DNA of 64,000 bases from an uncultured Gammaproteobacteria bacterium (GCA_964571255.1 CAZNAA010000001.1:487674-551673); one strand, 5' to 3'; counted from the first letter of the stretch, positions 430 through 38,757 are shown. Numbers and translations are program-made. The notes: generated by a model from the letters alone, not told the origin.

Positions 430-1125
430 TTAACGATATTTTTGGAATACAAAAAAGATTTCAGCAGTAAAGGCTTTATGCAAAATTGATCGTTTGAAGA
501 AGAAAGGAATTTGGATATATCTCCAAAGAAGTGGAACAAAAGATACCTGCTCTACTTTTAATAACCTGAATCCATGTCGATGGAAAAGGTTTGACCAATA
601 GTTTGGGTATTGAACATTAATATGATATTTATGATAAAGATTTTCTTTTTTGGGATATGGGACAGTAAAAATATATAGACCATTCATCTCTAACATTTTG
701 TAAATATTTTTCACTACCTTCTCACTATCAAATACATGCTCCATTACTTCAAAAGAAAACATCACATCATATTTCGTTTTAAAACTTGGATCCATAATAT
801 CAAGAGTAAGATATTTATTTTTCAGCTCTTTTGCTAAAACACTTTTATTCATATCCGATGCAACTACGTTTTTAAAATCATTCTGATTAAGAATGTTAAT
901 AAATCCACCGTGAGATGAACCAATTTCTAATACTTTACTTTTTTTATATTCAAAGATTTTGGGGAATATTTTTTTAATAACGTTAAAGTAATTTGCCATC
1001 CACATGGATGATTGCTTTAGAGAGATCGAGGGATAAAACTCATGGTAGTACTCGTTCGTTGTATAGTTTTCTTTTTTTATTTTCATTACGTATTCTCTCT
1101 TTTCTATAGTAACATATTTTCTCAA
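430..1125 (-). CDS. Class I SAM-dependent methyltransferase
   Basis: 231 aa ORF. Motif VLEIGSSHGGF (SAM-binding GxGxG-like) followed by acidic D/E motifs typical of Methyltransf_11/23. The track start is TTG; the first ATG is 13 codons downstream (about 1086). Confidence 0.7.
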   Translation of the reverse strand: MRKYVTIEKREYVMKIKKENYTTNEYYHEFYPSISLKQSSMWMANYFNVIKKIFPKIFEYKKSKVLEIGSSHGGFINILNQNDFKNVVASDMNKSVLAKELKNKYLTLDIMDPSFKTKYDVMFSFEVMEHVFDSEKVVKNIYKMLEMNGLYIFTVPYPKKENLYHKYHINVQYPNYWSNLFHRHGFRLLKVEQVSFVPLLWRYIQIPFFFKRSILHKAFTAEIFFVFQKYR

Positions 1126-1225
1126 TGATTAAGGGGTTTGTATCTTTGTTCCATTATAATATGGAGAATAAGTATTCCTGTCAATAAGAGATTATCTCAG
1201 AAATATCCTATGATATACTGTGGCT

Positions 1226-1903
1226 ATGAAAATCGAAATTCTCTCTGACATTCATGGCAATATCGATGGTTTAAACGCCGTCTTAAAAGACGCTGGAGAG
1301 GTAGATGAAATTATTTGTGCTGGTGATCTAACTGGCTACTATCCTTTCGTAAATGAGGTAATAGATACAATAAGAGTGAAAGGTGTCAAGACCATTATTG
1401 GAAACCATGACTTTTATTTACTCTCAGGTACATATCCTGAATCAACCAATCCTTCTGTCCGAGAATCAGTAGAGTCCATGAAAGGGTTCATTTCTCCTGA
1501 GAACTTAGCATATCTTGGAACACTTCCTCAATCTTTAGAACTTGAGATTGATGGGAAAAAGGTGTTAGTTTTTCATGGAAGTCCTTGGGATTCGATGGAA
1601 GGAAGAGTATACCCAGATTTTCCTGATTTTGATAAATTCAAAACAGTTGATGCAGATGTTGTGATTTTAGGACAAACACATCATCCTATTACGCGACAAC
1701 TTGGTGATGTAATGCTTATTAACCCTGGATCATGTGGACAACCACGAGATTATAACCAACTCTCCTATACTTTATGGGATACCACAGCAAATACTTTTGA
1801 CAACAGAAGAATTGGATGGGATATTCCTGGCTTTATTGATAGGGCTCAGAAAAAAGGAATTAGGCCTGAATATTTTGAAGTATTCAATCTGACAAAAAAG
1901 TAA
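1226..1903 (+). CDS. Metallophosphoesterase (calcineurin-like, YfcE-type)
   Basis: LSDIHGN...AGDLTGYYP...GNHD...GQTHHP metal-binding motifs. The track start 1220 is GTG. The ATG at 1226 is preceded by TGATATACT (1211-1219) plus 6 nt, a leaderless promoter architecture. Confidence 0.8.
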   Translation: MKIEILSDIHGNIDGLNAVLKDAGEVDEIICAGDLTGYYPFVNEVIDTIRVKGVKTIIGNHDFYLLSGTYPESTNPSVRESVESMKGFISPENLAYLGTLPQSLELEIDGKKVLVFHGSPWDSMEGRVYPDFPDFDKFKTVDADVVILGQTHHPITRQLGDVMLINPGSCGQPRDYNQLSYTLWDTTANTFDNRRIGWDIPGFIDRAQKKGIRPEYFEVFNLTKK

Positions 1904-1909
1904 CTCTTA

Positions 1910-2881
1910 TTAGTAAATATAATGTGTATCCTTATTCGTTTTTATTTCATTTAAGGAAATATCAGGATAAATAATATCCAGATATATGCGAACACAAGCA
2001 CCTTTTGTTATTTTAGGAATTGTTGGTACTTTATTATATAAATATTCCTCAATCGTATACTTAACATCTTCAAATCCAAACTGAGACCGTATAGAGTTAG
2101 TTCCTGATATTCTCCCATTCACTTCAAAAGGAGTAATACTCCCGTCATCACTGACAATTGATTGAATATTACATGATCCTCTGATAGTGAAATTCTTTAG
2201 CATTTTAGTGATAATACCTTCTATTTCTTTTTCATACTCTGTAGTTACTTCGCATCTATGAGTAGCACCTGCCACTAAGGACCTCTCAAAGGTAATATGC
2301 CCATGAAGTTTTCCTTTTTTTGTAACATAAAAAGCTGTCGTAATTTCTTTTCCTTGATAGAGTTTTTGGACAATATACTCAGAAGAGAACTCTTTAGGAT
2401 TTTTCGGATTAATGTGTAAGCCTCTTGAACCTCTCCCTTCAGCAGGTTTCACTATTATTTGGTCAAATTCATCGTTATACTTTGAAGGGAGAAAGGTCTC
2501 CGCAAAAGGGATTTGTGCTGCTTTAAAAAAAACACTTGTCTTATATTTATTGAGAAAAATATCTGCAACATCTGCACCCAAACTGGCAAGTGTAGGTAAT
2601 CTGTTCTTGTGAAGGGAAAGGTAAAATACTTCATAGTCTGTTGAGGGAATAATTAAGTCTACATTCTCCTTTTTGCAAATATCTATCATTTCAACAATGT
2701 AAGTTGGATCAGAGGAAAAAGGAACCTTATATACAGCGTCACATAAATAATTTCCTCCTGAAATACTTTCCGTATTTGTTCCAACCAGGCGAATATCCTT
2801 ATTTAACGCAATAATATTTCTTAAAATTCCCTGACCCGCATTTCCTCCTATTCCAGTGACTAAAACAGTCTTATTCTTCAT
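1910..2881 (-). CDS. ATP-grasp domain protein (carboxylate-amine ligase-like)
   Basis: 323 aa. N-terminal Rossmann-like KTVLVTGIGGNAGQG and an ATP-grasp-like central region. Sits between sugar aminotransferase and epimerase genes, suggesting N-acylation of an amino sugar. Confidence 0.55.
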   Translation of the reverse strand: MKNKTVLVTGIGGNAGQGILRNIIALNKDIRLVGTNTESISGGNYLCDAVYKVPFSSDPTYIVEMIDICKKENVDLIIPSTDYEVFYLSLHKNRLPTLASLGADVADIFLNKYKTSVFFKAAQIPFAETFLPSKYNDEFDQIIVKPAEGRGSRGLHINPKNPKEFSSEYIVQKLYQGKEITTAFYVTKKGKLHGHITFERSLVAGATHRCEVTTEYEKEIEGIITKMLKNFTIRGSCNIQSIVSDDGSITPFEVNGRISGTNSIRSQFGFEDVKYTIEEYLYNKVPTIPKITKGACVRIYLDIIYPDISLNEIKTNKDTHYIY

Positions 2882-3704
2882 CTATCAGCTCCTTTATTCC
2901 CTTTTCTAAAGAAATTTTTGGAACAAAATTAAGAGTAGTACGAGTAAAGGTGTTCTCGTACACAAATGAAGGACTTCGGTCTTCTCCACTAAGTTGAATA
3001 GTACACTCAGATATATATTCTTTAACTATATTTGCTACTTCTAAATTAGAATAAGACTTCTCAGAGGTACCTAAATATACTCCGTATTGCTCGCTTTCAG
3101 CTGCCAGTAGACATAAATCAACTGCATCTTGGACATGGATATAGTTTTGTAAACGAGATCCTGTTCCAAGTATTGTAATTTCCTTTTTATGCTTTGCATT
3201 TTCAATAATAAGAGGCAGGAACGTCTTCTTTGCCATACCTTTTCCATAAAGAGAAGAGAATCTAATAATTTGACTTCTCTCATGGAGTTTTACTATCGTT
3301 TCACCACTCAGTTTTGAAAGACCATACAAAGTAGGAGCAGTATAACTTGACTGCTCAGACAGAGATGAACTGCTTGTTCCGTATACTGAGACACTAGATG
3401 AAAAAATAATTTTACTTTCTGGGAATTGTTCACTTATCTTTAAAGGCAGCTTAATATTTCCATCGAGCAACTCCTTACTAGGAAGATTATAGTTTCCATG
3501 AGGAATATATGCTGCTACCAAAAAAATATAATCATATTTTGAAGAGAGAGTATCTAATTCATTAATAGAGTAGTTATTTGTTGATACTGGAAGATTGTTT
3601 TTATTTATATTATAAATACAATCCACTCTCCATTTCTTACTAAGACATTTTTGAACGATTGTACTTCCTAAAAATCCATTTGCTCCAATAACTAATACAT
3701 TCAT
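2871..3704 (-). CDS. NAD-dependent epimerase/dehydratase (SDR) family protein
   Basis: MNVLVIGANGFLGSTIV N-terminal GxxGxxG Rossmann motif; 277 aa. Confidence 0.75.
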   Translation of the reverse strand: MNVLVIGANGFLGSTIVQKCLSKKWRVDCIYNINKNNLPVSTNNYSINELDTLSSKYDYIFLVAAYIPHGNYNLPSKELLDGNIKLPLKISEQFPESKIIFSSSVSVYGTSSSSLSEQSSYTAPTLYGLSKLSGETIVKLHERSQIIRFSSLYGKGMAKKTFLPLIIENAKHKKEITILGTGSRLQNYIHVQDAVDLCLLAAESEQYGVYLGTSEKSYSNLEVANIVKEYISECTIQLSGEDRSPSFVYENTFTRTTLNFVPKISLEKGIKELIDEE

Positions 3705-3730
3705 AATTTTTACTATAATATTTTACAGCG

Positions 3731-5224
3731 CTAATAAAGACTGGATATGTCAACTACACTGTATGCTCTTTCATTATCTTTACACTCACTCACTCTTTTC
3801 TGAAAAGATTCGGGTGAAAAAAGTGTCGAGTAGGTTTTCATTCCCTTAATATGTTCAACTTTATTAGTTAAGACATAATGAACAAGATTTCCTTTTTTGT
3901 CAATAAAGAATGAGTCGACTAACACTTTTGGCTTGAGAGTTAAAATAAGTTTATCTAATTTTTCTTCCCTTTGATAATATGAGAGTACATCTTTAGAAGT
4001 AAGACCAGACATATCAATAAACTCCTGATTCTTGGCTGTATATGCAATCATCCCCAAGTCTCCAGCAAACACATACTCCCCAGGGAGAAGCATATTAGAT
4101 AGATATCTCCCTACTTCTTGTCTACACGCTTGTCCTTGAGTTAGTTGCATCATATGCATTCGCACGACAAAGGTAGATAAAAGAGTTTGAATGAGTATTA
4201 CTCCTATCAACAGAAATGCTCTTGTCCTCGTTTTTTTTCCTTGTAGCATTCGTGCTAATACTACCCCACTAAAGATCACGACAATTGGCAAAAGGTGAAC
4301 AGAATATCTTCCTCCATCAGAGTGTGGACCAAAAAGAAGAGTTACCATACTAATAAACAAATAGAGGTGTAATGACCAAAACCGCTTAAATTCGATTTTT
4401 AAAAAGGAGAAGATATATAGGAAAAAAACAATTAATGAAGTTCCTCCCCAAGCCATCAGAAGATGTCTTGGATTGGGTTGATAATACATAGCAATTTGCT
4501 TGAATAAAACTGCATTTGAGACAAAGCTTCCGTAATAAAAATATTTAAAGATGTAGAGTCCAAAAGTGATTATTCCAAAGAGAGTACACTGCAAGAGAAA
4601 TTGAGGAAGTATACTTTTCTCTTTTGTTACAACAAGTTTATATCCTTCTGCAAGAAACCAAACCCCAACCAGTAATATTCCCTCCATTCGTGTCAGTAAA
4701 ATAAGGATAAGAAGGGTTGTTTGCAAAATAGGTGTATGGTCTTTAGCAAAATAATAAAGATAAATAAAGTAAGTGACTAAAAAGGTAAAAAATACTGTCT
4801 CCATCCCACTGATTGACCAACCAGAGATAAATCCATGAATTCCTATTAAAAAACCAAGAAAGTAAGATAGTCCTAAGTTTTTTGTAAGAGTAAAAATACT
4901 CTTATATACTATCCAACTTATTCCCATAGCACTAGCAATTCCGATAAATGTTGCTACAAGCTCTAAATTAGTAGCACCTAACCTGTAAAATCCAGCGAGT
5001 ATAAGTGTGTAGCTGAATGAAGATGCTGCGTCTGCTTTTTCATGCATGTTAAATACTAATCCCTTTCCTTCGGCAAGATTCACTGCATACCGATAGGTAA
5101 TATAAGCATCATCATACTGATTTTTTAAGAATCCATTGGTTGGGAGATATAATAAAACAATAGCCAATAAAACATAGGCAAGAAGACTAAAAGGGTGAGT
5201 TGCCCAAGAAAAATATTTATTCAT
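3731..5224 (-). CDS. Polytopic membrane protein, GT-C-like (PMT/ArnT-type DD motif in first loop)
   Basis: 497 aa, about 12 hydrophobic segments. NQYDDAYITYRYA acidic-loop motif right after TM1, resembling the DE motif of GT39/GT83 enzymes. Confidence 0.5.
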   Translation of the reverse strand: MNKYFSWATHPFSLLAYVLLAIVLLYLPTNGFLKNQYDDAYITYRYAVNLAEGKGLVFNMHEKADAASSFSYTLILAGFYRLGATNLELVATFIGIASAMGISWIVYKSIFTLTKNLGLSYFLGFLIGIHGFISGWSISGMETVFFTFLVTYFIYLYYFAKDHTPILQTTLLILILLTRMEGILLVGVWFLAEGYKLVVTKEKSILPQFLLQCTLFGIITFGLYIFKYFYYGSFVSNAVLFKQIAMYYQPNPRHLLMAWGGTSLIVFFLYIFSFLKIEFKRFWSLHLYLFISMVTLLFGPHSDGGRYSVHLLPIVVIFSGVVLARMLQGKKTRTRAFLLIGVILIQTLLSTFVVRMHMMQLTQGQACRQEVGRYLSNMLLPGEYVFAGDLGMIAYTAKNQEFIDMSGLTSKDVLSYYQREEKLDKLILTLKPKVLVDSFFIDKKGNLVHYVLTNKVEHIKGMKTYSTLFSPESFQKRVSECKDNERAYSVVDISSLY

Positions 5225-5230
5225 GAATTA

Positions 5231-6349
5231 TTAGGTAGCAAAATAATCTGCAATTATTCTGCTTGGCTGAATTTTAGGGGCAACTTCAGATCGTTTATAC
5301 TGTTCAAAATTATGGATAAATTTGCGTATTACAATTAAGTTATTTTTACTAATAACAACATTTTTATCAACTCCTTCAATTCTTTCTGTCTCGCTCCGCA
5401 GTACTAAGCAGGGTTTCCCCATATAATACGACTCTTCCTGATTACTTCCTCCATCTGTAATAATAAACTCTGAATTATATAAAACCTTCATAAACTCTTC
5501 ATAAGGCAAGCGCGGGGTAATATGAATATTTTTATTCTTCTCAATCTTTTTTAGGAGAGAATAAGAAGTGAGTGCCAGTTCAGTAGGTTTATGTAAAATA
5601 AATATACAAGGAAGTTTTTTTACTTGTTTTTCGACCTCAGCTATTAATGAACGTACACGCGTTTCATTATAAATATTCTCTTGTCTGTGCATAACAAAGA
5701 CAAAGTATTTCTTCTTTTTCATTTTTTTCAAAATTGATGGTGTCTCTCCTTGATGGAGTACATGACGCAAGCTATCCAAAAGAGTATTTTCTACCGTGAT
5801 TATCTTTACTCCTTTTTCCTTTTGTAAGTTTTTCTGTGCCCAGGTATTAGGACAAAAGTGAACATCAACAAAAAAAGAAGTAATCACTCGGTCTAACTCT
5901 TCTGGAAAAGGATGTAATACATTAAAAGAACGAAGTCCTGCTTCAATATGAGCAACTTTATATCCTAGCGATTTTCCAAGAAGTGCTCCCATTACGGTAG
6001 ATACGGTGTCTCCATGCACAATGAAAAAATCTTTAGAGTTGTTACTTCTTCCTATTTTATTGCGCAAAAGAAAATGTCCAGAAAACAAATTTTTTATAAA
6101 CCAAACAAATACCCCAATTGGAGTTTGGGTAATAGGCTTTTTGCTCAAAAATGTCTCAATAGTGGAATTTTTTAGGTAGGACAAAATTCTACTTTTAGAA
6201 ATATCGTTTTGGCCTGAAGCAATGATGCTATAAGCAATACCCTTTTTTGAAAATTCGTTAAGAACAGGAAAAAGCTTGATGAGCTCGGCTTCAGTACCAA
6301 TAAAGAAAAAAAGTCTCGTACTACCGCTCATTCTTTCTGATCGTTTCAT
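5231..6349 (-). CDS. UDP-N-acetylglucosamine 2-epimerase-like (WecB/NeuC family)
   Basis: C-terminal ITDGGSNQEESYYMGKPCLVLRSETERIEG matches the conserved DSGG-QEE...GKP-LV-R--TERPE motif of non-hydrolysing UDP-GlcNAc 2-epimerases. Confidence 0.7.
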   Translation of the reverse strand: MKRSERMSGSTRLFFFIGTEAELIKLFPVLNEFSKKGIAYSIIASGQNDISKSRILSYLKNSTIETFLSKKPITQTPIGVFVWFIKNLFSGHFLLRNKIGRSNNSKDFFIVHGDTVSTVMGALLGKSLGYKVAHIEAGLRSFNVLHPFPEELDRVITSFFVDVHFCPNTWAQKNLQKEKGVKIITVENTLLDSLRHVLHQGETPSILKKMKKKKYFVFVMHRQENIYNETRVRSLIAEVEKQVKKLPCIFILHKPTELALTSYSLLKKIEKNKNIHITPRLPYEEFMKVLYNSEFIITDGGSNQEESYYMGKPCLVLRSETERIEGVDKNVVISKNNLIVIRKFIHNFEQYKRSEVAPKIQPSRIIADYFAT

Positions 6350-7277
6350 AATTTTTTAAAAACCATTCATACATATTTTTTATTCCTTCCTCAAGTGGTA
6401 TTTTAGGTTTCCACCCCAGCGCAAAATGCTTAGAAACATCCAATTGTTTCTTAGGAGTCCCGTCAGGTTTAGAAATATCCCATTCAGTCTCTCCATTAAA
6501 ACCTACAGTCTTTTTAACTAAAGCTGCTAATTCTTTAATAGTCAGATCTTCTCCTGTTCCTACATTAATAATTTCAGACCCATCGTAGTTATTCATTAAA
6601 AAAACTGATGAGTCAGCCATATCATCTACGTGAAGAAATTCTCTGTAGACGTTTCCAGATCCCCAAAGGGTAATCTTTTTATCCTTATTCACTTTTGCTT
6701 CGTGAAATCTTCGAACCAGAGCAGGCAAAACATGAGAATGGTTTAAATCGAAGTTATCATTTGGTCCATAAAGATTTGTAGGCATAACTGAAATGAAGTT
6801 AGTATGATACTGTTCATTAAAGCTTTGGCACATTTTTATCCCCGCAATTTTTGCAATTGCATACGCATCATTTGTTTCTTCAAGAGGTCCAGTTAATAAC
6901 TGGTCTTCTTTTATGGGCTGAATTGCGTGTTTAGGGTAAATACACGAACTTCCTAAAAAGAGCAGTTTTTTTATTTCATGTTTCCAGGAGTTATAAATTA
7001 CATTGTTTTGGATTTGCAAATTATTATAAATAAAATCAGCCTTATGTGTTTTATTGGCCATAATTCCCCCAACCTTTGCTGCTGCAAGGAAAATATAGTC
7101 AGGTTTTTCCTTGGAGAAGAATTTTTCAACTTGTTTTACATCTAAAAGATCAAGCTCTGAGCGAGTTTTTGTGATAATATTCTTATACCCTTCCTTTTTT
7201 AGAGCACGCACAATAGCAGTACCTACTAATCCACTCTGTCCCCCAGCTACAAATATTTTTGATTTCTTGTCCATCAT
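6321..7277 (-). CDS. fcl: GDP-L-fucose synthase (GDP-4-keto-6-deoxy-D-mannose 3,5-epimerase/4-reductase)
   Basis: KIFVAGGQSGLVGTAIVRAL...LAAAKVGGIMANKTHKADFIYNNLQIQNNVIYNSW...LLFLGSSCIYPK is near-collinear with Fcl/GMER. Confidence 0.85.
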   Translation of the reverse strand: MMDKKSKIFVAGGQSGLVGTAIVRALKKEGYKNIITKTRSELDLLDVKQVEKFFSKEKPDYIFLAAAKVGGIMANKTHKADFIYNNLQIQNNVIYNSWKHEIKKLLFLGSSCIYPKHAIQPIKEDQLLTGPLEETNDAYAIAKIAGIKMCQSFNEQYHTNFISVMPTNLYGPNDNFDLNHSHVLPALVRRFHEAKVNKDKKITLWGSGNVYREFLHVDDMADSSVFLMNNYDGSEIINVGTGEDLTIKELAALVKKTVGFNGETEWDISKPDGTPKKQLDVSKHFALGWKPKIPLEEGIKNMYEWFLKNYETIRKNER

Positions 7278-7278
7278 A

Positions 7279-8025
7279 TTATTTAGAATAATAGTGTAAT
7301 ATTTTCAATCGGTAATATACTGCCAATGTATCCCACAACATTCTTCCGATAATTTTCCAGAAGTTCCTTGAAGTAATATTACTTGTTGCGTTAAATTCAA
7401 TCTCTACGGGAGCTTCGTATATTCTTTTATACCCCATCTGATAAGCAACTGCAAGAAATTCAATATCAAACGCATACTTTTTTACAAGGAGTTTGGGAAG
7501 TACCTTTTTTACCACTGCTTTTCTGAAAAATTTAAGTCCTACTTGTGTATCCCTTACATAAAAACCAAATAATACTCTAGTTACTAATCTATATCCCCAG
7601 GAAATAATTCTTCGAATACGAGGATATTTCACAATAGAGGCTTGATGAAGTTTTGAGCCAATAATAACATCAGCGTTATACCAAGCAAAGTGAGAAAGAA
7701 GCATACCTATTCCATTCGTATTAATATCCATCCCTGCATCCATAAAACCAATAATATCCCCCTTAGCCTCCCTCATTCCATATCGTACTGCGTGTCCCTT
7801 TCCTTGATTCACCTTATAGCCAATTACTTTTATTTTACGTGACTTTACTTTTTGAGCTCTCTCATAGGTCTTATCAAGAAATCCATCAACCACTACAATT
7901 AATTCATAGTTGTATTGAGAACTAAGTGATTCCATCGCCTCTTTAATACGCGTAATATCTTCAACAATAGTCTTCTCTTGCTTGTAAGCTGGGATAACTA
8001 AGGAAATTAGTGGAAGTTTATTCAT
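7279..8025 (-). CDS. GT2 glycosyltransferase (Dpm1/ArnC-like polyprenyl-phosphate sugar synthase type)
   Basis: SLVIPAYKQEKTI...VVVDGFLDKT...DAGMD motifs of GT-A fold family 2; 248 aa with no long hydrophobic domain. Confidence 0.8.
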   Translation of the reverse strand: MNKLPLISLVIPAYKQEKTIVEDITRIKEAMESLSSQYNYELIVVVDGFLDKTYERAQKVKSRKIKVIGYKVNQGKGHAVRYGMREAKGDIIGFMDAGMDINTNGIGMLLSHFAWYNADVIIGSKLHQASIVKYPRIRRIISWGYRLVTRVLFGFYVRDTQVGLKFFRKAVVKKVLPKLLVKKYAFDIEFLAVAYQMGYKRIYEAPVEIEFNATSNITSRNFWKIIGRMLWDTLAVYYRLKILHYYSK

Positions 8026-9295
8026 GCGATTTTGAAAAAGTAACTTGGTAGTAAAAAATCATACATATAATAACAGAGATAATCGAGAGAATCGATACCG
8101 TAAATACTTGAGTAAAGTTTTGATGAAATAATTGTACACCAACTAATTGAAATAAAGCTCCAAGAAAAAGAATAATCCACACTTGTACTCTTTTGACTGC
8201 CAGGAAAAAATTAGTCATAAGAGAAAGAATAGCAAAAAGAGTGATAAAAAGACCACATAAAGGAAGATAGGAAGAAACAGCTAAATATTCCTTTTTTTGA
8301 AGGAATAGTCTAATCGTAAAATCAGGAAATAAGGTATAAAACCCAACAATTGCTAAAGAAGACGCAGCAACCAAACCTAAGGCCTGGAGAAAAATAGAAG
8401 TAAACTCTTTTTTTTGCATAAATCGATTTGTAATTAAAGGGAACATAACAAGTCCAATAGGAAAGGAGAAAAAGAAAATAACTTTCCCAACAAGCATAAG
8501 TCCTGCATACATCCCAGCGTCTTCAGGAGTAAAAAAATGCTTTACCATAAGTAAGTCAGTTGACGTAAAGGCGTTCAGGAAAAGAATTGCTGCTGCTGCT
8601 GGTACTCCGTATTTCATAAGATCTTTGGTTGGAATATCTAGATCATCCTTTTGCTTTTCTCGATAGGAAAATATATTTCGAATAGGAATACAATTAAGAA
8701 TGTACGAAGTAATTGTAGAAAGGATTAAGGCTCCTAAAATACCATACAATCCGTAACCCAAAATTACGAGGGCAAAACTCCCAACAAATTTAACTAGGGC
8801 GGAGATAAAATTAGCAAAAGAAATATAGCCAAACGCGAGTTTAGCTTGCAATAAACCAGTCACCACAGTATTTAAAACATTGATTCCAATAATAAAGCTG
8901 GTTAAAACAATAAACCCACTACTCTCTATTTGAAGAAATTCTGCAATCACAGGAGCTGCACTCAGTCCTAGAAAAATTACCAGTACAGCAATGACTCCGG
9001 TAAATATAGTTAATTTTTTATAGATTAAATATAACCCTCTATTGCTTCCAGAAACAAAATATTTGCTTGAGAAATTAACTACAGTTGGAAGTAGTGATCC
9101 AGCAACTAAAGCAAGCCAAGTAATAATAGAGGTAAGTGTTGCTAAATCTCCGTACGCAGAGACTGTGGCTAGATACTTATTCATTACTAAATGAAAAAGA
9201 AACTGTAATACATTTGTTGCTTGGGAGCTAATGAAAATAATTGCAGCTCCTGAGATGAGAGGAAGGGATAGTAGTTTATTTATATGCTGCTTCAT
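8018..9295 (-). CDS. Wzx-like oligosaccharide flippase (MOP superfamily polysaccharide biosynthesis protein)
   Basis: 425 aa, about 12 TM segments, MOP/polysacc_synt-like topology. Confidence 0.6.
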   Translation of the reverse strand: MKQHINKLLSLPLISGAAIIFISSQATNVLQFLFHLVMNKYLATVSAYGDLATLTSIITWLALVAGSLLPTVVNFSSKYFVSGSNRGLYLIYKKLTIFTGVIAVLVIFLGLSAAPVIAEFLQIESSGFIVLTSFIIGINVLNTVVTGLLQAKLAFGYISFANFISALVKFVGSFALVILGYGLYGILGALILSTITSYILNCIPIRNIFSYREKQKDDLDIPTKDLMKYGVPAAAAILFLNAFTSTDLLMVKHFFTPEDAGMYAGLMLVGKVIFFFSFPIGLVMFPLITNRFMQKKEFTSIFLQALGLVAASSLAIVGFYTLFPDFTIRLFLQKKEYLAVSSYLPLCGLFITLFAILSLMTNFFLAVKRVQVWIILFLGALFQLVGVQLFHQNFTQVFTVSILSIISVIICMIFYYQVTFSKSHE

Positions 9296-14452: not shown

Positions 14453-14453
14453 A

Positions 14454-16085: not shown

Positions 16086-16119
16086 ACAGTATTATCTTAT
16101 ACTATTCTCTTTATAACTC

Positions 16120-17613: not shown

Positions 17614-17614
17614 A

Positions 17615-19272: not shown

Positions 19273-19275
19273 AAA

Positions 19276-26486: not shown

Positions 26487-26489
26487 AAT

Positions 26490-27404: not shown

Positions 27405-27405
27405 T

Positions 27406-28866: not shown

Positions 28867-28869
28867 ATG

Positions 28870-31297: not shown

Positions 31298-32823
31298 ATT
31301 AGTATACCCATGAGGAGTGAGAGAATGTTACTCCAAAAACGAATAAGGGTATTTTCAAAGACAAATTGCACAGTATGATTGCCCGCTGAGACAGGTAAAC
31401 TCATAATTCCTGTCTCATTCACAATTTGAATTTCTGTTTTTCTCCCATCAACATACCCTGTCCATCCAGGGAAAAAGTGATGATTATAAGAGACACGAGA
31501 CTGATTCTCCACTGTCACCTTAAGCGTTACTTTATGTGATTTCTGCTCTAATACTTCAATCTTTTCAGGATTCATAAGACGATGCTCGAGAAAAAAAGGA
31601 GTTTCCGGACGAGTAAGAGGTTTTTTCATCACCCCTGTTGGAGTATATTCCTGCTTTACAGTGGTTGAATCTTCGTTTGTCATATAGTACATATCGTCTC
31701 GAAGGATATATTCTTTAGGAGCAGCATAGGGTAGCGCAAAATAAAGAGCACACAGAATAAACCCAGCGGCTAAACTGTATTGCCATATCTCTTTTCTTTT
31801 TTCTAATCCGTAAGCAAGAAGATAGGAGAGAGGGAGAAGAGAGAGAGAAAGAAACCTAAAAGGAAATTGAATGATAGACACAGGCAGATACATCCAGAGA
31901 ATACTACTTACTCCACTTGAGAGAAAGAGAGATAAAAGTAAAGTTATTCCAAAAAGTATCACTATCTTTTCTTTTTTCTCTTCCTTAAGAAATTGAATAC
32001 TTCCTAGTATGACTGCTAGAAGAGGAAGCACGCCAATAAGAATAAATGGAGCAAAGTATTTATTCCAATCTGAGATAGCTGTTTGTGAAAAGATAGTATA
32101 TTGCAACTCGTACAGTGCAGGAAGCCAGAAAAAAGCTGATACTCCTAATCCTCCTAAAAGAATAAAACTAATTTCTTTGAGAGAAAAAGGAAGAGCAGTT
32201 TTTCGAACAAAAAGATAACAAATAATAAGAGGCAGAAATAAAAGAGCTAGAGTGTTATGAGAAAGAATTAAGTAACCAATTGCTAGAGTAGAGAAAAAAA
32301 CACTTTTTCGCTCTACTTGCCACATGATAAACGGAAGAATAGCAAGGCTTAGCACTTCGCCAACTGATCCTCTGTGATACATATCATATAAATGATATGG
32401 GAATAATATATATACTATTCCCCCTACCCAGGCAGGAAGAAGAGAGAAGAATTTTCGAAGCCAGAGAAACGTAAAAACACCTGAGGAGAGAAGAGATACT
32501 CCAAGTACTATTTTGATTGAATCAATAAATCCAATCTTTACTAAATGCAGTACTTCAGCTAAATAAAGATAGCCTGGATACAGGAAGTTAATCACAGAAT
32601 ACCCATACTCAAAATTCAACCTTCCAACCCATCTCACGGGAAATTGTCCTTGTACTAACGCCTGATGAAAAGCAGTAAAACGAATAAGCATCCATTCCCC
32701 ATCATCAGTTATAAAAAACCCTGGCTTAAAAAGAGGAAGAAGTAACCAAATACTAATTCCTAATGTGAAACATCCCAAGATAATAACACTAAATTTTTTC
32801 ATGCTGTTTATATTTCCTTTCAT
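31255..32823 (-). CDS. Polytopic GT-C-like membrane protein, paralog family A
   Basis: FITDDGEWMLIRF...FPVRWVGRLNFEYGYSVINFLYPGYLY; 522 aa; tandem with 29591..31297. Confidence 0.5.
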   Translation of the reverse strand: MKGNINSMKKFSVIILGCFTLGISIWLLLPLFKPGFFITDDGEWMLIRFTAFHQALVQGQFPVRWVGRLNFEYGYSVINFLYPGYLYLAEVLHLVKIGFIDSIKIVLGVSLLSSGVFTFLWLRKFFSLLPAWVGGIVYILFPYHLYDMYHRGSVGEVLSLAILPFIMWQVERKSVFFSTLAIGYLILSHNTLALLFLPLIICYLFVRKTALPFSLKEISFILLGGLGVSAFFWLPALYELQYTIFSQTAISDWNKYFAPFILIGVLPLLAVILGSIQFLKEEKKEKIVILFGITLLLSLFLSSGVSSILWMYLPVSIIQFPFRFLSLSLLPLSYLLAYGLEKRKEIWQYSLAAGFILCALYFALPYAAPKEYILRDDMYYMTNEDSTTVKQEYTPTGVMKKPLTRPETPFFLEHRLMNPEKIEVLEQKSHKVTLKVTVENQSRVSYNHHFFPGWTGYVDGRKTEIQIVNETGIMSLPVSAGNHTVQFVFENTLIRFWSNILSLLMGILICIVSLRMRRVKIS

Positions 32824-35206
32824 AAAAAGCTAAATAACCAATAAAGGCAATTCCTGAGAAAAGAGAAATCAGAATTCCCTTTTCAAACTCTGAATCCTTA
32901 TAGAAAAATTCAATAGTATTTTCTCCAGGTTGTACTTCTACTGCTCGAAAAGCATAATTTGCCCGGTATACTTTTGACTCATTTCCATTTACTCTGGCTT
33001 TCCAGTGAGTGTCAAAAACATCTGAGAGATAGACTAACCCTTCCCACGGAGCATTTACTTTTATTTGCACTTTGTTGGGACTATACGAGGTAATCTGAGC
33101 ACTCACTGTTCCTGGAGAGGAAGTAAATGAAGGCCTATCTAACAATACTAATGTACTTCTTTCATCAAACTCTGAAGAGTGAAGTGTAGCCAACATTTTT
33201 TGTTCATCTGTTTCAACCACATATTGAGACGTAAAGTAAGTCCTATGAGTTACTCCTTTATTTTCGTATATTTGCCATGGAGTATGTTGCCATACCAGTT
33301 CATATCGTTCTGGTAGAAATCGTGAGGTAAGAGGAGCAAGATTTTCAGATAGAGAGGAATCTTGATGAATAACATATTTTACTCCTACAACATTCAAAAC
33401 ATTTTGTCTGTATTCATTATTTCTCATGTCCACATCACTATTCCCTTGAAAAATATTTGCATCAGCTCGAGAAACGTACTCTGGTAACTTTCCATCTTTT
33501 GAACTCATGAGAAGTTCTGTATACCATTTATCATGTAATGCATCGTTTCCTTCTGGAGAATAAACTCTATCAACTGATTGAAAATTACTATCTATGTATG
33601 CTGCATCATAACCCCAAAAACGATAATACTCAGGGAGTCGTTTTATATAAGAAACAAGTTCGGTCTTTGGATAAATAAATTCCCGTGGGGAAAAAGGAGT
33701 AATCTTATGGAAAAAGCGAAAGAGGTCAAAAATCGTAATAGCAAAAATACAAATAACAAATATTTGTGTCGCAAATGATTTACTTACTCGAGCTAGTCCT
33801 TTGTACAAAATAAGAGCACCAATAAAGAGAAGAAAAAGAAGTGAAGAAAAAATAGTATTTTTGAAAGAGACCATGAGATGCTCAAGTGGAATAGTATGAA
33901 GAAAATATTTTTGTACGCAGATAAAAACTCCTACTAAAACAAAAAAGGCTGTTCCAATAGCAATTATTTTTTTCAAAGACAACCTAATTTGTTCATGTTT
34001 AATATAAATATCTAACCCTATTGCTGCTAAGATACTCCCTGCAAATACGAATAGACTTAACATCCTGGTCGGAACAGCTGTTGAAATAACCGGGATAGGA
34101 AGAAGAAAAAAATACTTAGTAATAAAAAGGTTTGTTGTTAACAAGAGAACAATACCTCCCAAAAAACCAAAATATTTTACATCTGTTCTTTTTCTTCCAT
34201 GTGTAAGTGCGTAGAGTGCAAAAAAGAATGGTATTACTCCAAAATACGATACTCTCTCTATATACGTTCCATTAAACCAATGGTTTCTGGTAGCTGGGTT
34301 TCCAAAAAAATCAGGAATAAGAACTGTTACTACATACCAAAAAGGATTTTGAAGAAAAGTTATCTGCTCAAGCGTATAGCCACCACGTGAAGATGCAGCA
34401 AAAGCAGAAAGTGTGGGAAGTAGTTGAAACATTCCTAGAAAAATGGGAACAATAAAGGAAGGCAGAAGAAAAAGAAATGGTTTAACATCTTTTCTACTCC
34501 AACAAATAAGTAAGGTATGACAGGCAACGACTACTCCAACATAAAAAAATCCCTGGATATATCCAGCTAAAAGTGATGCAAGAAGAATCATCCCGTTAAA
34601 AAGAAGATATTTTGTTTTTTGTGTCTCTAGAAACTTATCAACAACAAGGAGAGATAAAGGAAGCCATAAAAGAGTCTGTCCTATATTCCCATATTCCATC
34701 CACACAGTCATATAGGAAGAAAATGAGAAAGCTAAGCCTCCAAAAAGAGAAGCTGCATAGGATAATTGTTTCTCTTTTAAGTAAAGATACATAAACCAAC
34801 CCGCCAAAAAGGGAGTGAGAAAAATAAATAGCGTCCATGCAGATTCAAAAGGAAGAAGAAAAAAGACAATATTTAGTGGATTAAATACTCCACTTTGAAA
34901 GTTAGCCATCATATGGTTTCCTGAAAAGTTATAGGGAGTCCAAAAAGGAATTTCACCCAGCTTAAGAGACTCAATAACAAATAGTTTCCAAGGATATAAC
35001 TGACGAACTACATCTATTCCCTGCGCTTTATGAGGGACTCCTCCTGGAGGATAGCCTAAATGAGAATCTTGTTTATACGGAGCATAATGTCCTACTAGTA
35101 TGTCTCCTGGAAAAGGAATATATCCTTTTCCGACAGGATAAAAAAATAACAAACAAAGAAGAAAAATAGCAGGAATTCCTAACCATTTATGCAATATATA
35201 TTTCAT
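32789..35206 (-). CDS. YfhO-like GT-C membrane glycosyltransferase
   Basis: DVVRQLYPWKLFVIESLKLGEIPFWTPYNFSGN motif; 805 aa. Confidence 0.6.
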   Translation of the reverse strand: MKYILHKWLGIPAIFLLCLLFFYPVGKGYIPFPGDILVGHYAPYKQDSHLGYPPGGVPHKAQGIDVVRQLYPWKLFVIESLKLGEIPFWTPYNFSGNHMMANFQSGVFNPLNIVFFLLPFESAWTLFIFLTPFLAGWFMYLYLKEKQLSYAASLFGGLAFSFSSYMTVWMEYGNIGQTLLWLPLSLLVVDKFLETQKTKYLLFNGMILLASLLAGYIQGFFYVGVVVACHTLLICWSRKDVKPFLFLLPSFIVPIFLGMFQLLPTLSAFAASSRGGYTLEQITFLQNPFWYVVTVLIPDFFGNPATRNHWFNGTYIERVSYFGVIPFFFALYALTHGRKRTDVKYFGFLGGIVLLLTTNLFITKYFFLLPIPVISTAVPTRMLSLFVFAGSILAAIGLDIYIKHEQIRLSLKKIIAIGTAFFVLVGVFICVQKYFLHTIPLEHLMVSFKNTIFSSLLFLLFIGALILYKGLARVSKSFATQIFVICIFAITIFDLFRFFHKITPFSPREFIYPKTELVSYIKRLPEYYRFWGYDAAYIDSNFQSVDRVYSPEGNDALHDKWYTELLMSSKDGKLPEYVSRADANIFQGNSDVDMRNNEYRQNVLNVVGVKYVIHQDSSLSENLAPLTSRFLPERYELVWQHTPWQIYENKGVTHRTYFTSQYVVETDEQKMLATLHSSEFDERSTLVLLDRPSFTSSPGTVSAQITSYSPNKVQIKVNAPWEGLVYLSDVFDTHWKARVNGNESKVYRANYAFRAVEVQPGENTIEFFYKDSEFEKGILISLFSGIAFIGYLAFYERKYKQHEKI

Positions 35207-36690
35207 AATTCTTTAAGTTTTGTAAGAAGTAACGGATCCATTCCTCCTGGTTTTTCTGATCTTAAGACTAAATCTAATGGTAGTTGAGGCGGAATCTCAT
35301 CATATTCTTTTAAGAGAATATATACTGGACCCTTTTCTCTTGCATCCAAAATCTCTTGATCAAGTGTTTCTAGTGGCCAGCGAGGAAGGAGAATGATTTG
35401 AGGATCATCCCAATACTCCAAAGTAAATGCATAAGGATAAATTCCAAATGTTCCTTGAATAACTAAGGTAATTGGTCGCTTTTCTTTTTCTTCATTGAGT
35501 ACCTCCATTACTTTTTCTATCCCATATCCTGACGGATGCTCACTAATGAATTGCTTCCTCTCATCAATAGGAAAAGGAGCAAGAGGAGGATTGGTGAGAA
35601 GATAAAAATCAAATGGAATAAACAATACACCACATAGAGCAATCCCTCCCACTACTCCAGTATATGGAATATTTTTCCTTGTAACTAAATAATACATCGC
35701 AAGAACAATTGCTAAGAGTGCGTAGGGAGTAGTAAACAGGATATACCGAGGAAAGATTTCTCTTCCAATCGTTGCTAGAGCCAAAATAGGGATAAACCAG
35801 AGCATAAAAAGCATTAGTCCTTTTCTCCAGGAAAGAAAAAGAAGAATAACAAATGAGATAAGAGTGAGAAGAAGAAATGGAAGTGTATAGTATCCAAGTA
35901 TCCAGGAATAGAATCCTCCTAAATTTCCCACAGTAAGCTCAAAAGGATTCGCAAGAAGTTTTTCTAGTGGCTGTTGAAACTGTGCGTTCTTCATTGCTGC
36001 ACGGTCATAGACACTGGAAATTCGTTGTAAGTTATTAATAAGTTCTGAAACTCCTCCCATTACGAGAAAAAGGAGTACTATTTTGTTAAGTTTTTCCTTA
36101 ATGGTTTCCAGATTAACGATTAATAAGAAACAAAGCGGAGTAAGAACCAGAAAAAGGAGTGCTGTTGGTTTTGACAGAAGAGCTAATCCTAAAAACCCTC
36201 CCCACAATAGTGCATGTTTATAAGAAAAAGTCTCTGCTGTCTTCAGAGCAAAATAGACACTCCATAACAACATACAGGAAAGAAGACTATCAAAAAGGGC
36301 TAATCGATCGTAAAAAAGAAGGAAAGGATGGAAGATATACAAAATCCCAGTAAGAGCAACAAAACGAAGTTGCTTAGTGAAGTGATAGGTAATTAAACAG
36401 ATGGCAACTAAACTTCCTATTCCTGCCAAAACAGAAGGGAATCTTCCAGCAAGTAAATACCACTCTGATGGAAAGACTGTGATAAAGCTTGCAATGATCC
36501 AAATAAGAAGAGGAGGCTTTCCATCAACTAGTGAGATAAACCAATTAGAATGATTCACAGCAATAAATTTTGCCCAATAAATATAAATGGACTCATCAGT
36601 AAATAAAGGAAGTAGTAGCAGATTATACAATCTGGTAAAAAAATATAATCCTCCCAGTCCTACACTTGTTAGTAGTATTCTATTTTTCAT
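35203..36690 (-). CDS. ArnT/PMT-like GT-C membrane protein
   Basis: LPLFTDESIYIYWAKF acidic loop after TM1; 495 aa polytopic. Confidence 0.5.
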   Translation of the reverse strand: MKNRILLTSVGLGGLYFFTRLYNLLLLPLFTDESIYIYWAKFIAVNHSNWFISLVDGKPPLLIWIIASFITVFPSEWYLLAGRFPSVLAGIGSLVAICLITYHFTKQLRFVALTGILYIFHPFLLFYDRLALFDSLLSCMLLWSVYFALKTAETFSYKHALLWGGFLGLALLSKPTALLFLVLTPLCFLLIVNLETIKEKLNKIVLLFLVMGGVSELINNLQRISSVYDRAAMKNAQFQQPLEKLLANPFELTVGNLGGFYSWILGYYTLPFLLLTLISFVILLFLSWRKGLMLFMLWFIPILALATIGREIFPRYILFTTPYALLAIVLAMYYLVTRKNIPYTGVVGGIALCGVLFIPFDFYLLTNPPLAPFPIDERKQFISEHPSGYGIEKVMEVLNEEKEKRPITLVIQGTFGIYPYAFTLEYWDDPQIILLPRWPLETLDQEILDAREKGPVYILLKEYDEIPPQLPLDLVLRSEKPGGMDPLLLTKLKEL

Positions 36691-36692
36691 AT

Positions 36693-37901
36693 CTACGTTT
36701 TTTTAGAAAGAGACAATGCATTCTTCACAATGACAACTCCTCCAAATAGGATAAGTACAGTGGCCATTGTCCAGAAAAAATTCCTGTTTATTACCTCACT
36801 CCACTCTCCAGTATAAAAGAATGGAACATATTGAAGTACTCCTAGAAGAGAAAGGGTGAAAACGAGTACTATTCTTTCTTTAATCATTCCTACAAAAAAC
36901 AAAAAGGTCAGAATGTAAAGAAGATACCATGGTTGTACTACTGTTCTTTCACTTGCGAGATAAAATGCTATTCCCATCCATAAAATACAAAGAATTCCAA
37001 TAACATCCCATTTAATCACTTGTTTTTTCCAAACAAAAAAGCCAAGGAGTAAAAAAGCAGGAAGAAGAAAAACCGTAGCAAATTTCATGCCAATAGACAC
37101 TCCCAAAAGAATAAAAGCTACTAAATAGTTCTTTCTTAAAAGAAAAACAAATGCCCAGATCGCAAAAACAAACATAGCGATATCATTATGTGCCGATACT
37201 AGACTCTCATATAACACTAAAGGATTAGCTGCAAAGAGAACGGTAAAGAAAAGAGCTGTCTTTTCATTAATATACTCAAACAATTGATACATTCCTTTTA
37301 CTAAAAAAACAAAACACGTAGCAATAAGAGCCTTGAAGAGAAAAAAGGTAAAAAGAAAACTCCCCATTCCTAAGAAGGAAAAAGGAATAGTTAGTACAAG
37401 CCATAGTGGTCCATAGGGATAGGTTCTATGCGTCCAGTGCATGAACGCAAGCATAGAGTCTTGAGGAAAATCGAGTGGTTTAAATGCATAAGGATTTTTT
37501 CCGTAAATAGTAAAAATCTTAGCATCAAAAATATAGTTGAAAAGATCATAGGAAAAAGCGTTATAGGAAAGAGTCAACAATCCTGTTATCCCAAGAAATA
37601 AGACCCATAATGATTTTTTTTCTATTCTTCCTTTCCAGACAGAATATAATAGTACTCCATATAAAACAAATCCTAGTAGGCTAATTCCCAAGAAAAGATG
37701 GGTAGATAAAGGACGTTGAAAATATCCTATGATTTGAAAAGCTCGCTGAATAGTGAAAAGAGAAGGAAAACGAGTAAGAGCGAGTCCTAAATCAACTTGG
37801 GTAAAGGAGTACAAAAAAACACTAAGTGCCCAAAGAAAAGAAGCAAGATAAATAATTTTTTCAAGCTTTGATAAAGAAGCAAGAAAAGAAAATAATTTCA
37901 T
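36693..37901 (-). CDS. Polytopic membrane protein, GT-C/DUF2029-like (putative mannosyltransferase-type)
   Basis: 402 aa, about 10 TM segments, DLFNYIFDAKIFTIYGKNPY loop. Confidence 0.4.
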   Translation of the reverse strand: MKLFSFLASLSKLEKIIYLASFLWALSVFLYSFTQVDLGLALTRFPSLFTIQRAFQIIGYFQRPLSTHLFLGISLLGFVLYGVLLYSVWKGRIEKKSLWVLFLGITGLLTLSYNAFSYDLFNYIFDAKIFTIYGKNPYAFKPLDFPQDSMLAFMHWTHRTYPYGPLWLVLTIPFSFLGMGSFLFTFFLFKALIATCFVFLVKGMYQLFEYINEKTALFFTVLFAANPLVLYESLVSAHNDIAMFVFAIWAFVFLLRKNYLVAFILLGVSIGMKFATVFLLPAFLLLGFFVWKKQVIKWDVIGILCILWMGIAFYLASERTVVQPWYLLYILTFLFFVGMIKERIVLVFTLSLLGVLQYVPFFYTGEWSEVINRNFFWTMATVLILFGGVVIVKNALSLSKKT

Positions 37902-37902
37902 A

Positions 37903-38661
37903 TTAACGATACTTACCTAGTATCGCATTTTTCTTAATAACCAGCAAATCTCTCAGTCCAAAAATAGAATCTTTTACTGGACTTACGCGTCTTGTTTCGA
38001 CATATAGCCACTCCACAGGGACTTCTTTAATTCGATAGCCTTTAATGGAAGCTAAATACAAAAGTTCTACATCAAATCCAGCTGAGACACTGGATCCCTT
38101 CACTGCTTTAAATCCATTATGAAGCTTATGTACCTTTGTAAATAAATCTTTTGCTGCAGCATGCTCAAAAATCTTAAACCCACACTGGGTATCTCTTACT
38201 CCTTTAAGCCCTACAATTATCCCTCGAAGAAGCATATTTGCTCGTGCCATGATGATTCGAAAAATTGGTGATCCTTTTCTTTGATTGTTTCGAGATCCAA
38301 TGACAACTTTATATCCTTTTTCAAAATGAGGAAGTAAGTTATCAATCTCATCAATAGGAGTTGCCTGATCCATGTCAGTAAATAAAATATATTTTCCGTT
38401 TGCCTGAAGTACTCCTGTTGTTACTGCTCCTGCTTTTCCTAAATGAGGATTTTCTACTAGCCTGAACTCCGGATGTTCCCTCATAAACTTTTTAATAAAT
38501 TCGACACTTCCATCTTTTGAACCATCATCCACAACAATTACTTCATAAGAGAATTTTTTGTGCTTGAGGAAGTCATCTACCTTCTCCAAAACTCCCTTTC
38601 GTAGGTTTGCCATTTCTTCGTAACAAGGGATAATTACTGATAAATGAGGATTTTGCGCCAT
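37903..38661 (-). CDS. GT2 glycosyltransferase (GtrB/ArnC/Dpm1-like polyprenyl-phosphate sugar synthase)
   Basis: LSVIIPCYEEMANL...VIVVDDGSKDGS...FTDMDQATP. The true start is the internal ATG (MAQNPHL) at 38661; the track ORF extends to 38724 through a non-Met codon. Confidence 0.8.
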   Translation of the reverse strand: MAQNPHLSVIIPCYEEMANLRKGVLEKVDDFLKHKKFSYEVIVVDDGSKDGSVEFIKKFMREHPEFRLVENPHLGKAGAVTTGVLQANGKYILFTDMDQATPIDEIDNLLPHFEKGYKVVIGSRNNQRKGSPIFRIIMARANMLLRGIIVGLKGVRDTQCGFKIFEHAAAKDLFTKVHKLHNGFKAVKGSSVSAGFDVELLYLASIKGYRIKEVPVEWLYVETRRVSPVKDSIFGLRDLLVIKKNAILGKYR

Positions 38662-38757
38662 ATCTTTAGTATACAAGAAAATTGGGAATTGGTACACAGA
38701 GTATAGCAAATTATAGGACCTCAAACAAGCTTAAAAGTATAATTATTGCGTACATTT

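Follow-up and report, generated by a model that had tools for sequence, protein, structure and literature searches.

What does a bacterium assemble with a gene cluster in which a dozen polytopic glycosyltransferases of the GT-C class stand among other glycosyltransferases and flippases, and on which side of its membrane is the product made? The question is raised by a 64,000-nucleotide stretch of DNA registered as an uncultured Gammaproteobacteria bacterium (GCA_964571255.1 CAZNAA010000001.1:487674-551673; the whole stretch is called the window here), which carries a dense, largely minus-strand glycosylation locus at positions 430 to 38724. A preliminary description of this locus had interpreted it as a set of enzymes for the stepwise decoration, outside the cytoplasm, of an acceptor that already exists. 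With a probability of roughly one half, we propose instead that the host is a Levybacteria-like Candidate Phyla Radiation (CPR) bacterium and that the locus is a conserved envelope-glycan assembly locus operating in two compartments. Genes are named below by their lower coordinate in the window; coordinates, strands and family scores are collected in Table 1.

All twelve large polytopic proteins of the locus are GT-C enzymes, the number that had been estimated from the first inspection. The count is regarded as confirmed because ten of the 12 exceed Pfam gathering thresholds (26.1 bits for PMT_2, 22.7 for PMT and 26.4 for PTPS_related), the two Pfam-negative proteins, 3731 and 36693, display the GT-C fold, and every one of the twelve carries an acidic motif (DD, DE or D) soon after its first transmembrane (TM) helix. 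These first-loop motifs, exemplified by NWDEV, TWDEV, FTDES, MHDD, TDDGE and YDDAY, do not vary when members of the 3731 and 36693 families are aligned and are predicted to face the extracytoplasmic side; each protein has 6-12 predicted hydrophobic segments. Neither of the Pfam-negative proteins is a Wzy polymerase or a transporter. ALG3, ALG12, ALG9 and ALG6 were among the best structural matches, and sequence identity to mycobacterial enzymes was only 8-16%. PDB sequence searches with 36693, YfhO protein 19276 and PMT_2 protein 12815 returned nothing useful. For 36693, the Pfam scan gave no match, the model being either absent from the Pfam copy or scoring below the reporting threshold; among precomputed assignments, a match to PF26314 (MptA_B_family) is recorded for homologs that are about 50% identical. 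Relatives of 3731 are located in loci rich in Leloir glycosyltransferases and methyltransferases.

Pfam also bears out the family grouping first proposed, with four ArnT/PMT-like proteins (12815, 14454, 16120 and 35203), three YfhO proteins (19276, 22593 and 32789) and a third set, initially termed paralog family A (11164, 29591 and 31255), which corresponds to PTPS_related. The latter family (PF10131) belongs to the Pfam GT-C clan CL0111 (PMC7801869). Among the ArnT/PMT-like proteins, 12815 and 14454 are paralogs (35% identical) that both pass the PMT hidden Markov model (HMM) threshold and possess a DE motif in loop 1 (WDEV), suggesting a protein acceptor; 35203 has the DE motif and scores 21.6 bits against PMT, below the 22.7-bit cutoff.

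The nine GT2 genes reported earlier were all recovered by Pfam (7279, 10322, 17615, 18325, 24826, 25569, 26490, 28870 and 37903), but their designation as nine lipid-sugar synthases did not hold. Sorting by BLAST among window proteins, NCBIfam models and PDB sequence searches identified four Dpm1-like proteins (7279, 17615, 28870 and 37903; 237-273 aa), in which most or all of the catalytic domain is matched by known synthases of the Dpm1/ArnC/PpgS type, and five of other kinds. The four all match the NCBIfam Dol-P-hexose and PpgS models; 17615, 28870 and 37903 align with the P. furiosus Dol-P-Man synthase (DPMS, 5mlz) and with ArnC, and 17615 and 37903 additionally with GtrB. In PDB, 37903 is closest to 5mlz, followed by GtrB and ArnC; it spans both NCBIfam models nearly full length and bears the motifs DMD and RDTQCGFK. 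The most conserved gene of the locus is 17615, with homologs 65-79% identical, some of which are named dolichol-phosphate mannosyltransferase by the Joint Genome Institute (JGI). No TM helices were predicted in any of the four (maximum 19-residue hydropathy 1.05-1.48). On this sequence evidence, the credible candidates for polyprenyl-phosphate-sugar synthases number four, not nine.

The remaining five GT2s resemble conventional transferases. Proteins 10322, 24826 and 26490 constitute a separate paralogous group by BLAST among window proteins, and only the N-terminal half of their GT-A fold matches the models. For 26490, the nearest structures are those of GmaR, which is the flagellin O-GlcNAc transferase of Listeria, and then of SunS, a peptide S-glycosyltransferase; just the GT-A core aligns, and this likeness is kept only as a lead towards a protein acceptor. 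Protein 25569 matched only galactofuranosyltransferases in PDB (9dtp and 9oa3).

Two GT4 transferases (9276 and 21518) and two Wzx-like MOP flippases (8018 and 27406) were confirmed by Pfam as previously listed, and a further stretch of the locus described below raises the GT4 count to three. Each flippase gene lies directly beside a Dpm1-like gene: 8018 and 7279 overlap by 8 bp, and 28870 lies directly upstream of 27406 with a gap of 3 bp. The second flippase (Wzx2, 27406) matches NCBIfam models for MOP flippases, for an O-glycosylation flippase (86 bits) and for TuaB; it is 47-61% identical across relatives. Its adjacency to the Dpm1-like GT2 holds in the window and in four related loci (L002, L006, L007 and L014). 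Nucleotide-sugar genes stand in the same cluster and are predicted from their families to make sugars for the cytoplasmic Leloir enzymes.

Table 1. Genes of the glycosylation locus in order of position in the window, with the matches on which each assignment rests.
Feature	Coordinates	Strand	Evidence
WecE-type dTDP-4-amino-4,6-dideoxyhexose aminotransferase, N-terminal part, runs off the window	1..419	-	Translation
S-adenosylmethionine-dependent methyltransferase	430..1125	-	Pfam; gene caller start 1086; gene call in L011
Metallophosphoesterase	1220..1903	+	Metallophos_2 92 bits
ATP-grasp ligase	1910..2881	-	PylC-like_N, ATP-grasp_3; NF009402 174 bits
Short-chain dehydrogenase/reductase (SDR), epimerase/reductase (RmlD-like)	2871..3704	-	Pfam and NCBIfam
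GT-C, rare family without Pfam model	3731..5224	-	Closest solved relative by sequence AftB
Non-hydrolysing UDP-GlcNAc 2-epimerase-like (WecB-like)	5231..6349	-	Epimerase_2 187.6 bits; TIGR00236 176 bits, cutoff 210
GDP-L-fucose synthase-like SDR	6321..7277	-	NF047922 478 bits, cutoff 500
GT2, Dpm1-like candidate	7279..8025	-	Full-length PpgS model and Dol-P-hexose transferase match; 30% identical to 17615
MOP (Wzx-like) flippase 1	8018..9295	-	Polysacc_synt and Polysacc_synt_3; about 12 TM helices
GT4 (GT-B Leloir transferase)	9276..10325	-	Glycos_transf_1 110 bits
GT2, paralog of 26490 and 24826	10322..11182	-	34% identical to 26490; Pfam and NCBIfam
GT-C, PTPS_related	11164..12846	-	66.8 bits; also PMT_2 28.4 bits
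GT-C, PMT/PMT_2	12815..14452	-	PMT_2 34.4, PMT 25.9 bits; NWDEV motif
GT-C, PMT/PMT_2	14454..16085	-	PMT_2 38.1, PMT 32.7 bits; TWDEV motif
GT-C, PMT_2	16120..17613	-	PMT_2 31.1 bits
GT2, Dpm1-like candidate	17615..18328	-	DPMS 5mlz (residues 1-215, 2.8e-19), then GtrB, ArnC
GT2, conventional (EpsD/MftF-like)	18325..19272	-	DPMS alignment limited to N-terminal half
GT-C, YfhO, conserved-core member	19276..21525	-	82.3 bits; orthologs 42-46% identical in L002-L007
GT4 (GT-B Leloir transferase)	21518..22690	-	Glycos_transf_1 77.3 bits; kept in 6/6 syntenic loci
GT-C, YfhO	22593..24905	-	86.6 bits
GT2, paralog of 26490 and 10322	24826..25572	-	35% identical to 26490; Pfam GT2
GT2, rhamnosyl/galactofuranosyl-transferase-like	25569..26486	-	Best NCBIfam TIGR01556 rhamnosyltransferase
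GT2, paralog group, not Dpm1-like, probably Leloir	26490..27404	-	Best PDB GmaR 1.5e-17, then SunS
MOP (Wzx-like) flippase 2	27406..28866	-	Polysacc_synt_3 149 bits
GT2, Dpm1-like candidate	28870..29616	-	DPMS 5mlz (residues 8-198), then ArnC
GT-C, PTPS_related	29591..31297	-	55.2 bits; MHDD motif
GT-C, PTPS_related (PF10131)	31255..32823	-	29.1 bits; TDDGE motif
GT-C, YfhO	32789..35206	-	96.8 bits; 30-31% identity with each remaining YfhO protein of the locus
GT-C, PMT_2 (ArnT/PMT-like)	35203..36690	-	PMT_2 37.9 bits; FTDES motif after TM1
GT-C, MptA_B/GT87 (PimE/ALG3-like) related	36693..37901	-	Homologs carry PF26314 or PF09594
GT2, Dpm1-like synthase candidate, first operon gene	37903..38724	-	Glycos_transf_2 91.9 bits

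The left edge of the locus at position 430 is a window artefact, because the identical genome continues with further glycan genes on the same strand. Logan contig L011 equals the window over 11,086 bp with 0 mismatches and runs 10 kb past window position 1, where L011:10668-20657 adds at least eight same-strand glycan genes. These include the full WecE-type aminotransferase gene (NCBIfam, 616 bits against a cutoff of 375), a GT2, a GT4 and an Acyl_transf_3 O-acyltransferase, together with a 438-aa polytopic protein that has a full-length but sub-threshold PMT_2 match (23.5 bits) and three polytopic or membrane proteins without a class (726, 357 and 661 aa, the last truncated where the L011 locus ends). 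The coordinates of these four polytopic genes in L011 are 11806-13122, 14372-16552, 18968-20041 and a start at 20103. Between the 726-aa protein and a protein termed AftD-faint at the equivalent position of L015, there is weak collinear similarity (E=5e-4). The locus is therefore no shorter than 49 kb, and as many as four further candidates may join its 12 confirmed GT-Cs; the GT-C genes alone account for about 21 kb. It represents about 6% of a 772,860-bp NCBI contig, the longest found to carry identical proteins. Runs SRR8893622-24 of the source samples contain the contigs.

Within the window, the ORF list (open reading frames of at least 100 aa) gives 30 minus-strand genes in 430..38724 rather than the 32 consecutive genes originally counted, and the run is not uninterrupted as had been stated, being broken by the plus-strand metallophosphoesterase gene. 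From 1910 to 38724, 29 minus-strand genes follow one another with spacings of -98 to +34 bp, which leaves no room there for unlisted genes. Promoter and terminator scans of the cluster stayed at or below shuffle expectation, save for one promoter-like site, the cluster's best, which reads TTGACA-17-TATTAT (11/12 matches) and lies at 1184..1156 (-), between the phosphoesterase and methyltransferase genes; this site suggests that a second transcription unit probably starts at the methyltransferase gene. The 5' end of the cluster is bounded by a tRNA-Glu gene (38779..38851). Cluster GC is 33-37% and flank GC 35-40%. The flanking genes (HflX, Lon, ABC-F, GltX and MscL) are ordinary bacterial housekeeping genes, with lon about 5 kb upstream of the cluster and hflX and other genes in between. 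Three ORFs elsewhere in the window match no Pfam family, even with E relaxed to 1, namely 39642-40586 (-; 314 aa), 40972-41331 (+; 119 aa) and 62493-63635 (+; 380 aa); the 380-aa protein begins with hydrophobic stretches and continues as a long soluble part.

As the preliminary description had stated for the locus, the families that define conventional polymer pathways were not found by Pfam, either in the window or in the 10 kb beyond. Initiating phosphoglycosyltransferases (PGTs) of the WecA/MraY type (PF00953) or WbaP type (PF02397) were absent from the window, the L011 extension and the ORFs tested in relatives; across the ORFs scanned in the same three sets, no matches were obtained to Wzy_C or Wzz/PCP, nor to STT3/PglB or LCP. 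No PglL/Wzy_C match occurred among the window ORFs scanned, and no GtrA/GtcA flippase among the scanned ORFs of at least 100 aa in the window or among those of the extension and relatives. That the cluster lacks a PGT carries little evidential weight: in many O-antigen systems the gene for the initiating enzyme lies outside the locus, and those of E. coli depend in this way on wecA.

From the GT-Cs, the interleaved Dpm1-like synthases and the lack of PGT, Wzy, Wzz and oligosaccharyltransferase genes, we infer, on sound grounds, that a large part of the locus would serve extracytoplasmic transfer from polyprenyl-phosphate sugars. In the window, however, five GT2s of conventional type accompany two GT4s and a pair of MOP flippases, with Fcl-like, WecB-like and methyltransferase genes alongside, and genes for a WecE-type aminotransferase and an O-acyltransferase stand at or past its left edge. 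Jointly they make up a toolkit with which a heteroglycan could be built on a lipid carrier within the cell, and the earlier denial of classic polymer synthesis is therefore only half right.

A shared core of these genes recurs in related genomes. Relatives were located by a scan with YfhO protein 19276, taking one genome per species, and six loci (L002-L007) were found at 42-46% identity. An ordered core common to all six comprises Wzx2, three GT2s (26490-like, 25569-like and 24826-like), a GT4, YfhO, a GT2 (18325-like), a Dpm1-like GT2 and two to four PMT_2 genes, and it is interleaved with extra polytopic ORFs that differ among the loci. Two more genomes (L013 and L014) have the same 5' end beside lon, with GT2, MptA_B-family, PMT_2 and PTPS_related genes, followed further on by GT2, Polysacc_synt and two GT2 genes. 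At least eight related genomes thereby keep the locus, with a GT-C content that varies among them. The conserved syntenic core points to one inherited, functionally linked locus, which would have descended vertically within the lineage, its GT-C complement varying, and would not be an island of recent acquisition.

The titles of the metagenome-assembled genomes carrying the six loci are Candidatus Levybacteria, Levyibacteriota and Patescibacteria, and, for three, uncultured Gammaproteobacteria. The latter three (L004, L006 and L007) are nevertheless syntenic with the Levybacteria locus and 42-46% identical, and their taxonomic labels are probably wrong. Other observations in the relatives concern individual genes. 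L003:6787-8859, inside the core between GT2 and GT4, encodes a protein that begins with a PMT-like GT-C domain and ends with a PBP_dimer (penicillin-binding-protein dimerisation) domain, and L005:6774-8852 in the same position has a similar N-terminus; such a fusion may hint at some of the machinery acting close to peptidoglycan synthesis. A gene of the type I phosphodiesterase/alkaline-phosphatase superfamily lies inside the cluster at L002:6573-7880, and in another relative a 1025-aa Ser/Thr kinase-TPR protein is encoded beside the cluster, at L003:2614-5691.

How might these components cooperate? In the cytoplasm, the Fcl-like, WecB-like and WecE-type enzymes and the methyl- and acyltransferases would supply unusual sugars, from which the five conventional GT2s and the two GT4s (three with the extension) may assemble an oligosaccharide or polysaccharide carried by a membrane lipid; the initiating enzyme would be encoded elsewhere or not be recognisable. 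In parallel, the four soluble Dpm1-like GT2s, assigned at the family level, would charge polyprenyl phosphate with single sugars. The two MOP flippases may then move the lipid-linked glycan, the polyprenyl-phosphate sugars, or both, to the outer face, where at least 12 GT-Cs of four or more families, about three per synthase and each adding a distinct linkage, would use polyprenyl-phosphate sugars to extend and branch the glycan or to glycosylate proteins. The assembly logic would be that of mycobacterial arabinogalactan and lipomannan, or of the stage of the ALG pathway in the lumen of the endoplasmic reticulum (ER). Candidates for the final acceptor are a wall polymer, a lipoglycan and a surface protein; by analogy, the known role of YfhO suggests a teichoic-type polymer (PMC5836110, PMC8035078).

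The preliminary description favored a different organization, in which independent three-component modules of synthase and GT-C decorate an acceptor made elsewhere, such as a pilus, a protein of the cell surface or some teichoic-acid-like polymer, and no lipid-linked oligosaccharide is built by the locus. The blocks of GT-C genes are indeed flanked by Dpm1-like GT2s, systems that glycosylate teichoic acids have YfhO as their GT-C (PMC5836110, PMC8035078), and the missing PGT, Wzy and Wzz would be expected under this scheme. The adjacency of GT2 and GT-C genes, claimed for every GT2, is true of six of the nine. The GtrB-GtrII arrangement that was thought to recur at least six times fares less well, as only four GT2s are Dpm1-like, for at least 12 GT-Cs, and these lack the C-terminal TM helices of the GtrB/CsbB type, with no GtrA-type flippase in the window. 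Moreover, such modules have no use for the GT4s and MOP flippases, for the five GT2s of conventional type or for the nucleotide-sugar modification genes. We regard this explanation as unlikely; an assembly line divided between two compartments fits the composition of the locus better than a stack of Gtr-like decoration modules.

Equally improbable, in our judgment, is a general protein glycosylation system, in which a lipid-linked glycan built by the Leloir enzymes is moved en bloc by one GT-C onto S-layer, pilin or secreted proteins, while PMT-like enzymes O-mannosylate Ser/Thr-rich proteins and other GT-Cs trim or extend protein-bound glycans. The PMT (protein O-mannosyltransferase) matches and DE motifs of 12815 and 14454 and the score of Wzx2 against the O-glycosylation flippase model accord with it, as does the prominence of type IV pili in CPR bacteria (PMC6744442). 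The window also encodes a secreted 657-aa protein at 55285..57258 (+), with a signal peptide, a GDSL hydrolase domain, CHB_HEX_C/Fn3_assoc and a Ser/Thr/Pro-rich linker TPTPSSSSPSSSNS. Linkers of this composition are typical O-glycosylation sites, and on that account the protein is a candidate glycosylation substrate. On the other side, the window yields no STT3/PglB or PglL/Wzy_C match, the locus contains no gene for a target protein, and the PMT_2/PMT matches, at a weak 26-38 bits, cannot distinguish a protein acceptor from one that is a glycan or a lipid. The last alternative would have the polytopic proteins act as transporters, or have no catalytic function in the membrane, the supercluster being an annotation illusion. 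It drew no support beyond the two proteins without a Pfam match, is refuted at the level of fold and family, and has a negligible probability.

Several points weigh against the two-compartment assembly locus itself. The four Dpm1-like GT2s score far below every NCBIfam equivalog cutoff, for which reason their sugar cannot be named. The window and its 10-kb extension yielded no match to any family of PGTs, polymerases, ligases, LCP proteins or oligosaccharyltransferases, so that both the start and the end of the proposed pathway are missing there. Co-location is no proof of a single product, and the locus could house several independent glycosylation systems; promoter and terminator scans offer no operon evidence beyond gene spacing. 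To our knowledge, the only precedent for MOP flippases acting on monophosphate-linked sugars is the archaeal AglR.

The component families of the locus are all known; what is unusual is their arrangement and the number of GT-Cs in one locus of a very small genome. We know of no denser array of GT-C genes than these 12 confirmed members, or up to 16 candidates, in about 50 kb. A literature search of limited coverage retrieved no description of such a locus in CPR bacteria, and the CPR reviews and genetics paper examined do not discuss glycosylation machinery. CPR bacteria (Patescibacteria) have tiny genomes and depend on host contact, and their surface chemistry is essentially unknown. The size of the locus and its conservation with variable GT-C content suggest an extracytoplasmically assembled complex glycan as a core, diversifying feature of the lineage. 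A more tentative extension, to which we attach only limited credence, is that Levybacteria, and perhaps many Microgenomates-type CPR bacteria, might build a major envelope polymer by a largely extracytoplasmic, mycobacterium-like route, with MOP flippases serving polyprenyl-monophosphate sugars and variable GT-Cs generating a surface-glycan diversity that would govern host attachment or phage evasion of these episymbionts. The locus provides gene targets for glycan chemistry and heterologous assays and for probing enrichment cultures with lectins or antibodies, and three GT-C groups that are poorly characterised can be studied side by side in it as a compact natural set: PTPS_related, the 3731 family, which has no Pfam model, and the MptA_B-like proteins.

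Compared with known systems, the locus shares with Wzx/Wzy O-antigen and capsule loci the co-directional arrangement of nucleotide-sugar genes (Fcl-like, WecB-like and WecE-type), GT2 and GT4 transferases, an O-acyltransferase and Wzx. Wzy, Wzz/PCP, WaaL and PGT were not found in it, however, both Wzy-like candidates proved to be GT-C proteins, and its GT-C genes, at least 12, have no counterpart in such loci; judged by its gene families, it would have the MOP flippase of the Wzx/Wzy class without the PGT, Wzy and Wzz.

In three-component systems, the C55-P-sugar made by a GT2 leaves through a flippase, and its sugar is transferred outside by a GT-C, YfhO and ArnT-like PMT_2 proteins being among these (PMC8035078, PMC5836110). 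The locus has the GT-C part in common with the Gtr, Arn and CsbB representatives (GtrA/GtrB/GtrII, ArnC/ArnEF/ArnT and CsbB/GtcA/YfhO), possessing three YfhO and four PMT_2 proteins. In contrast to those systems, its synthases are soluble, Dpm1-like and devoid of the GtrB/CsbB TM helices, no GtrA/GtcA- or ArnE/F-type flippase is present, the ratio of synthase to GT-C is about 1:3 rather than 1:1, and many Leloir glycosyltransferases and MOP flippases are interleaved. The locus would accordingly lack two defining parts of the Gtr/CsbB-YfhO type, the TM-anchored synthase and GtrA.

A Dpm1-type synthase, a candidate MOP/Wzx-like flippase and GT-Cs completing a glycan on the far side of the membrane are combined in the AglD/AglR/AglS system of Haloferax volcanii and in the ER-lumen ALG3/9/12/6/8/10 stage. 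The locus resembles them in this combination and in its structural matches, ALG3, ALG12, ALG9 and ALG6 being among the best, and differs in its bacterial host, in the lack of a detected STT3/AglB, and in having far more GT-C paralogs, including bacterial families (YfhO and PTPS_related).

The remaining comparison is with mycobacterial and corynebacterial arabinogalactan and lipomannan/lipoarabinomannan synthesis (Ppm1; PimA/PimB; PimE; MptA/B/C; GlfT2; AftA-D; EmbA-C), where a Dpm1-like synthase likewise feeds many GT-Cs that extend the glycan outside after a cytoplasmic GT4/GT2 stage. The locus has counterparts in 36693 (MptA_B/GT87-related), 3731 (AftB being the closest solved structure), 25569 (GlfT2-like) and the GT4s. 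No decaprenyl-phospho-arabinose pathway, recognisable WecA/WbbL start or LCP ligase is seen in it, and it adds the YfhO and PTPS_related families. Mycobacterial genes for these pathways are scattered, with at most about five GT-Cs near each other, whereas here a single locus of about 50 kb gathers all the genes, and the genome is well under 1 Mb.

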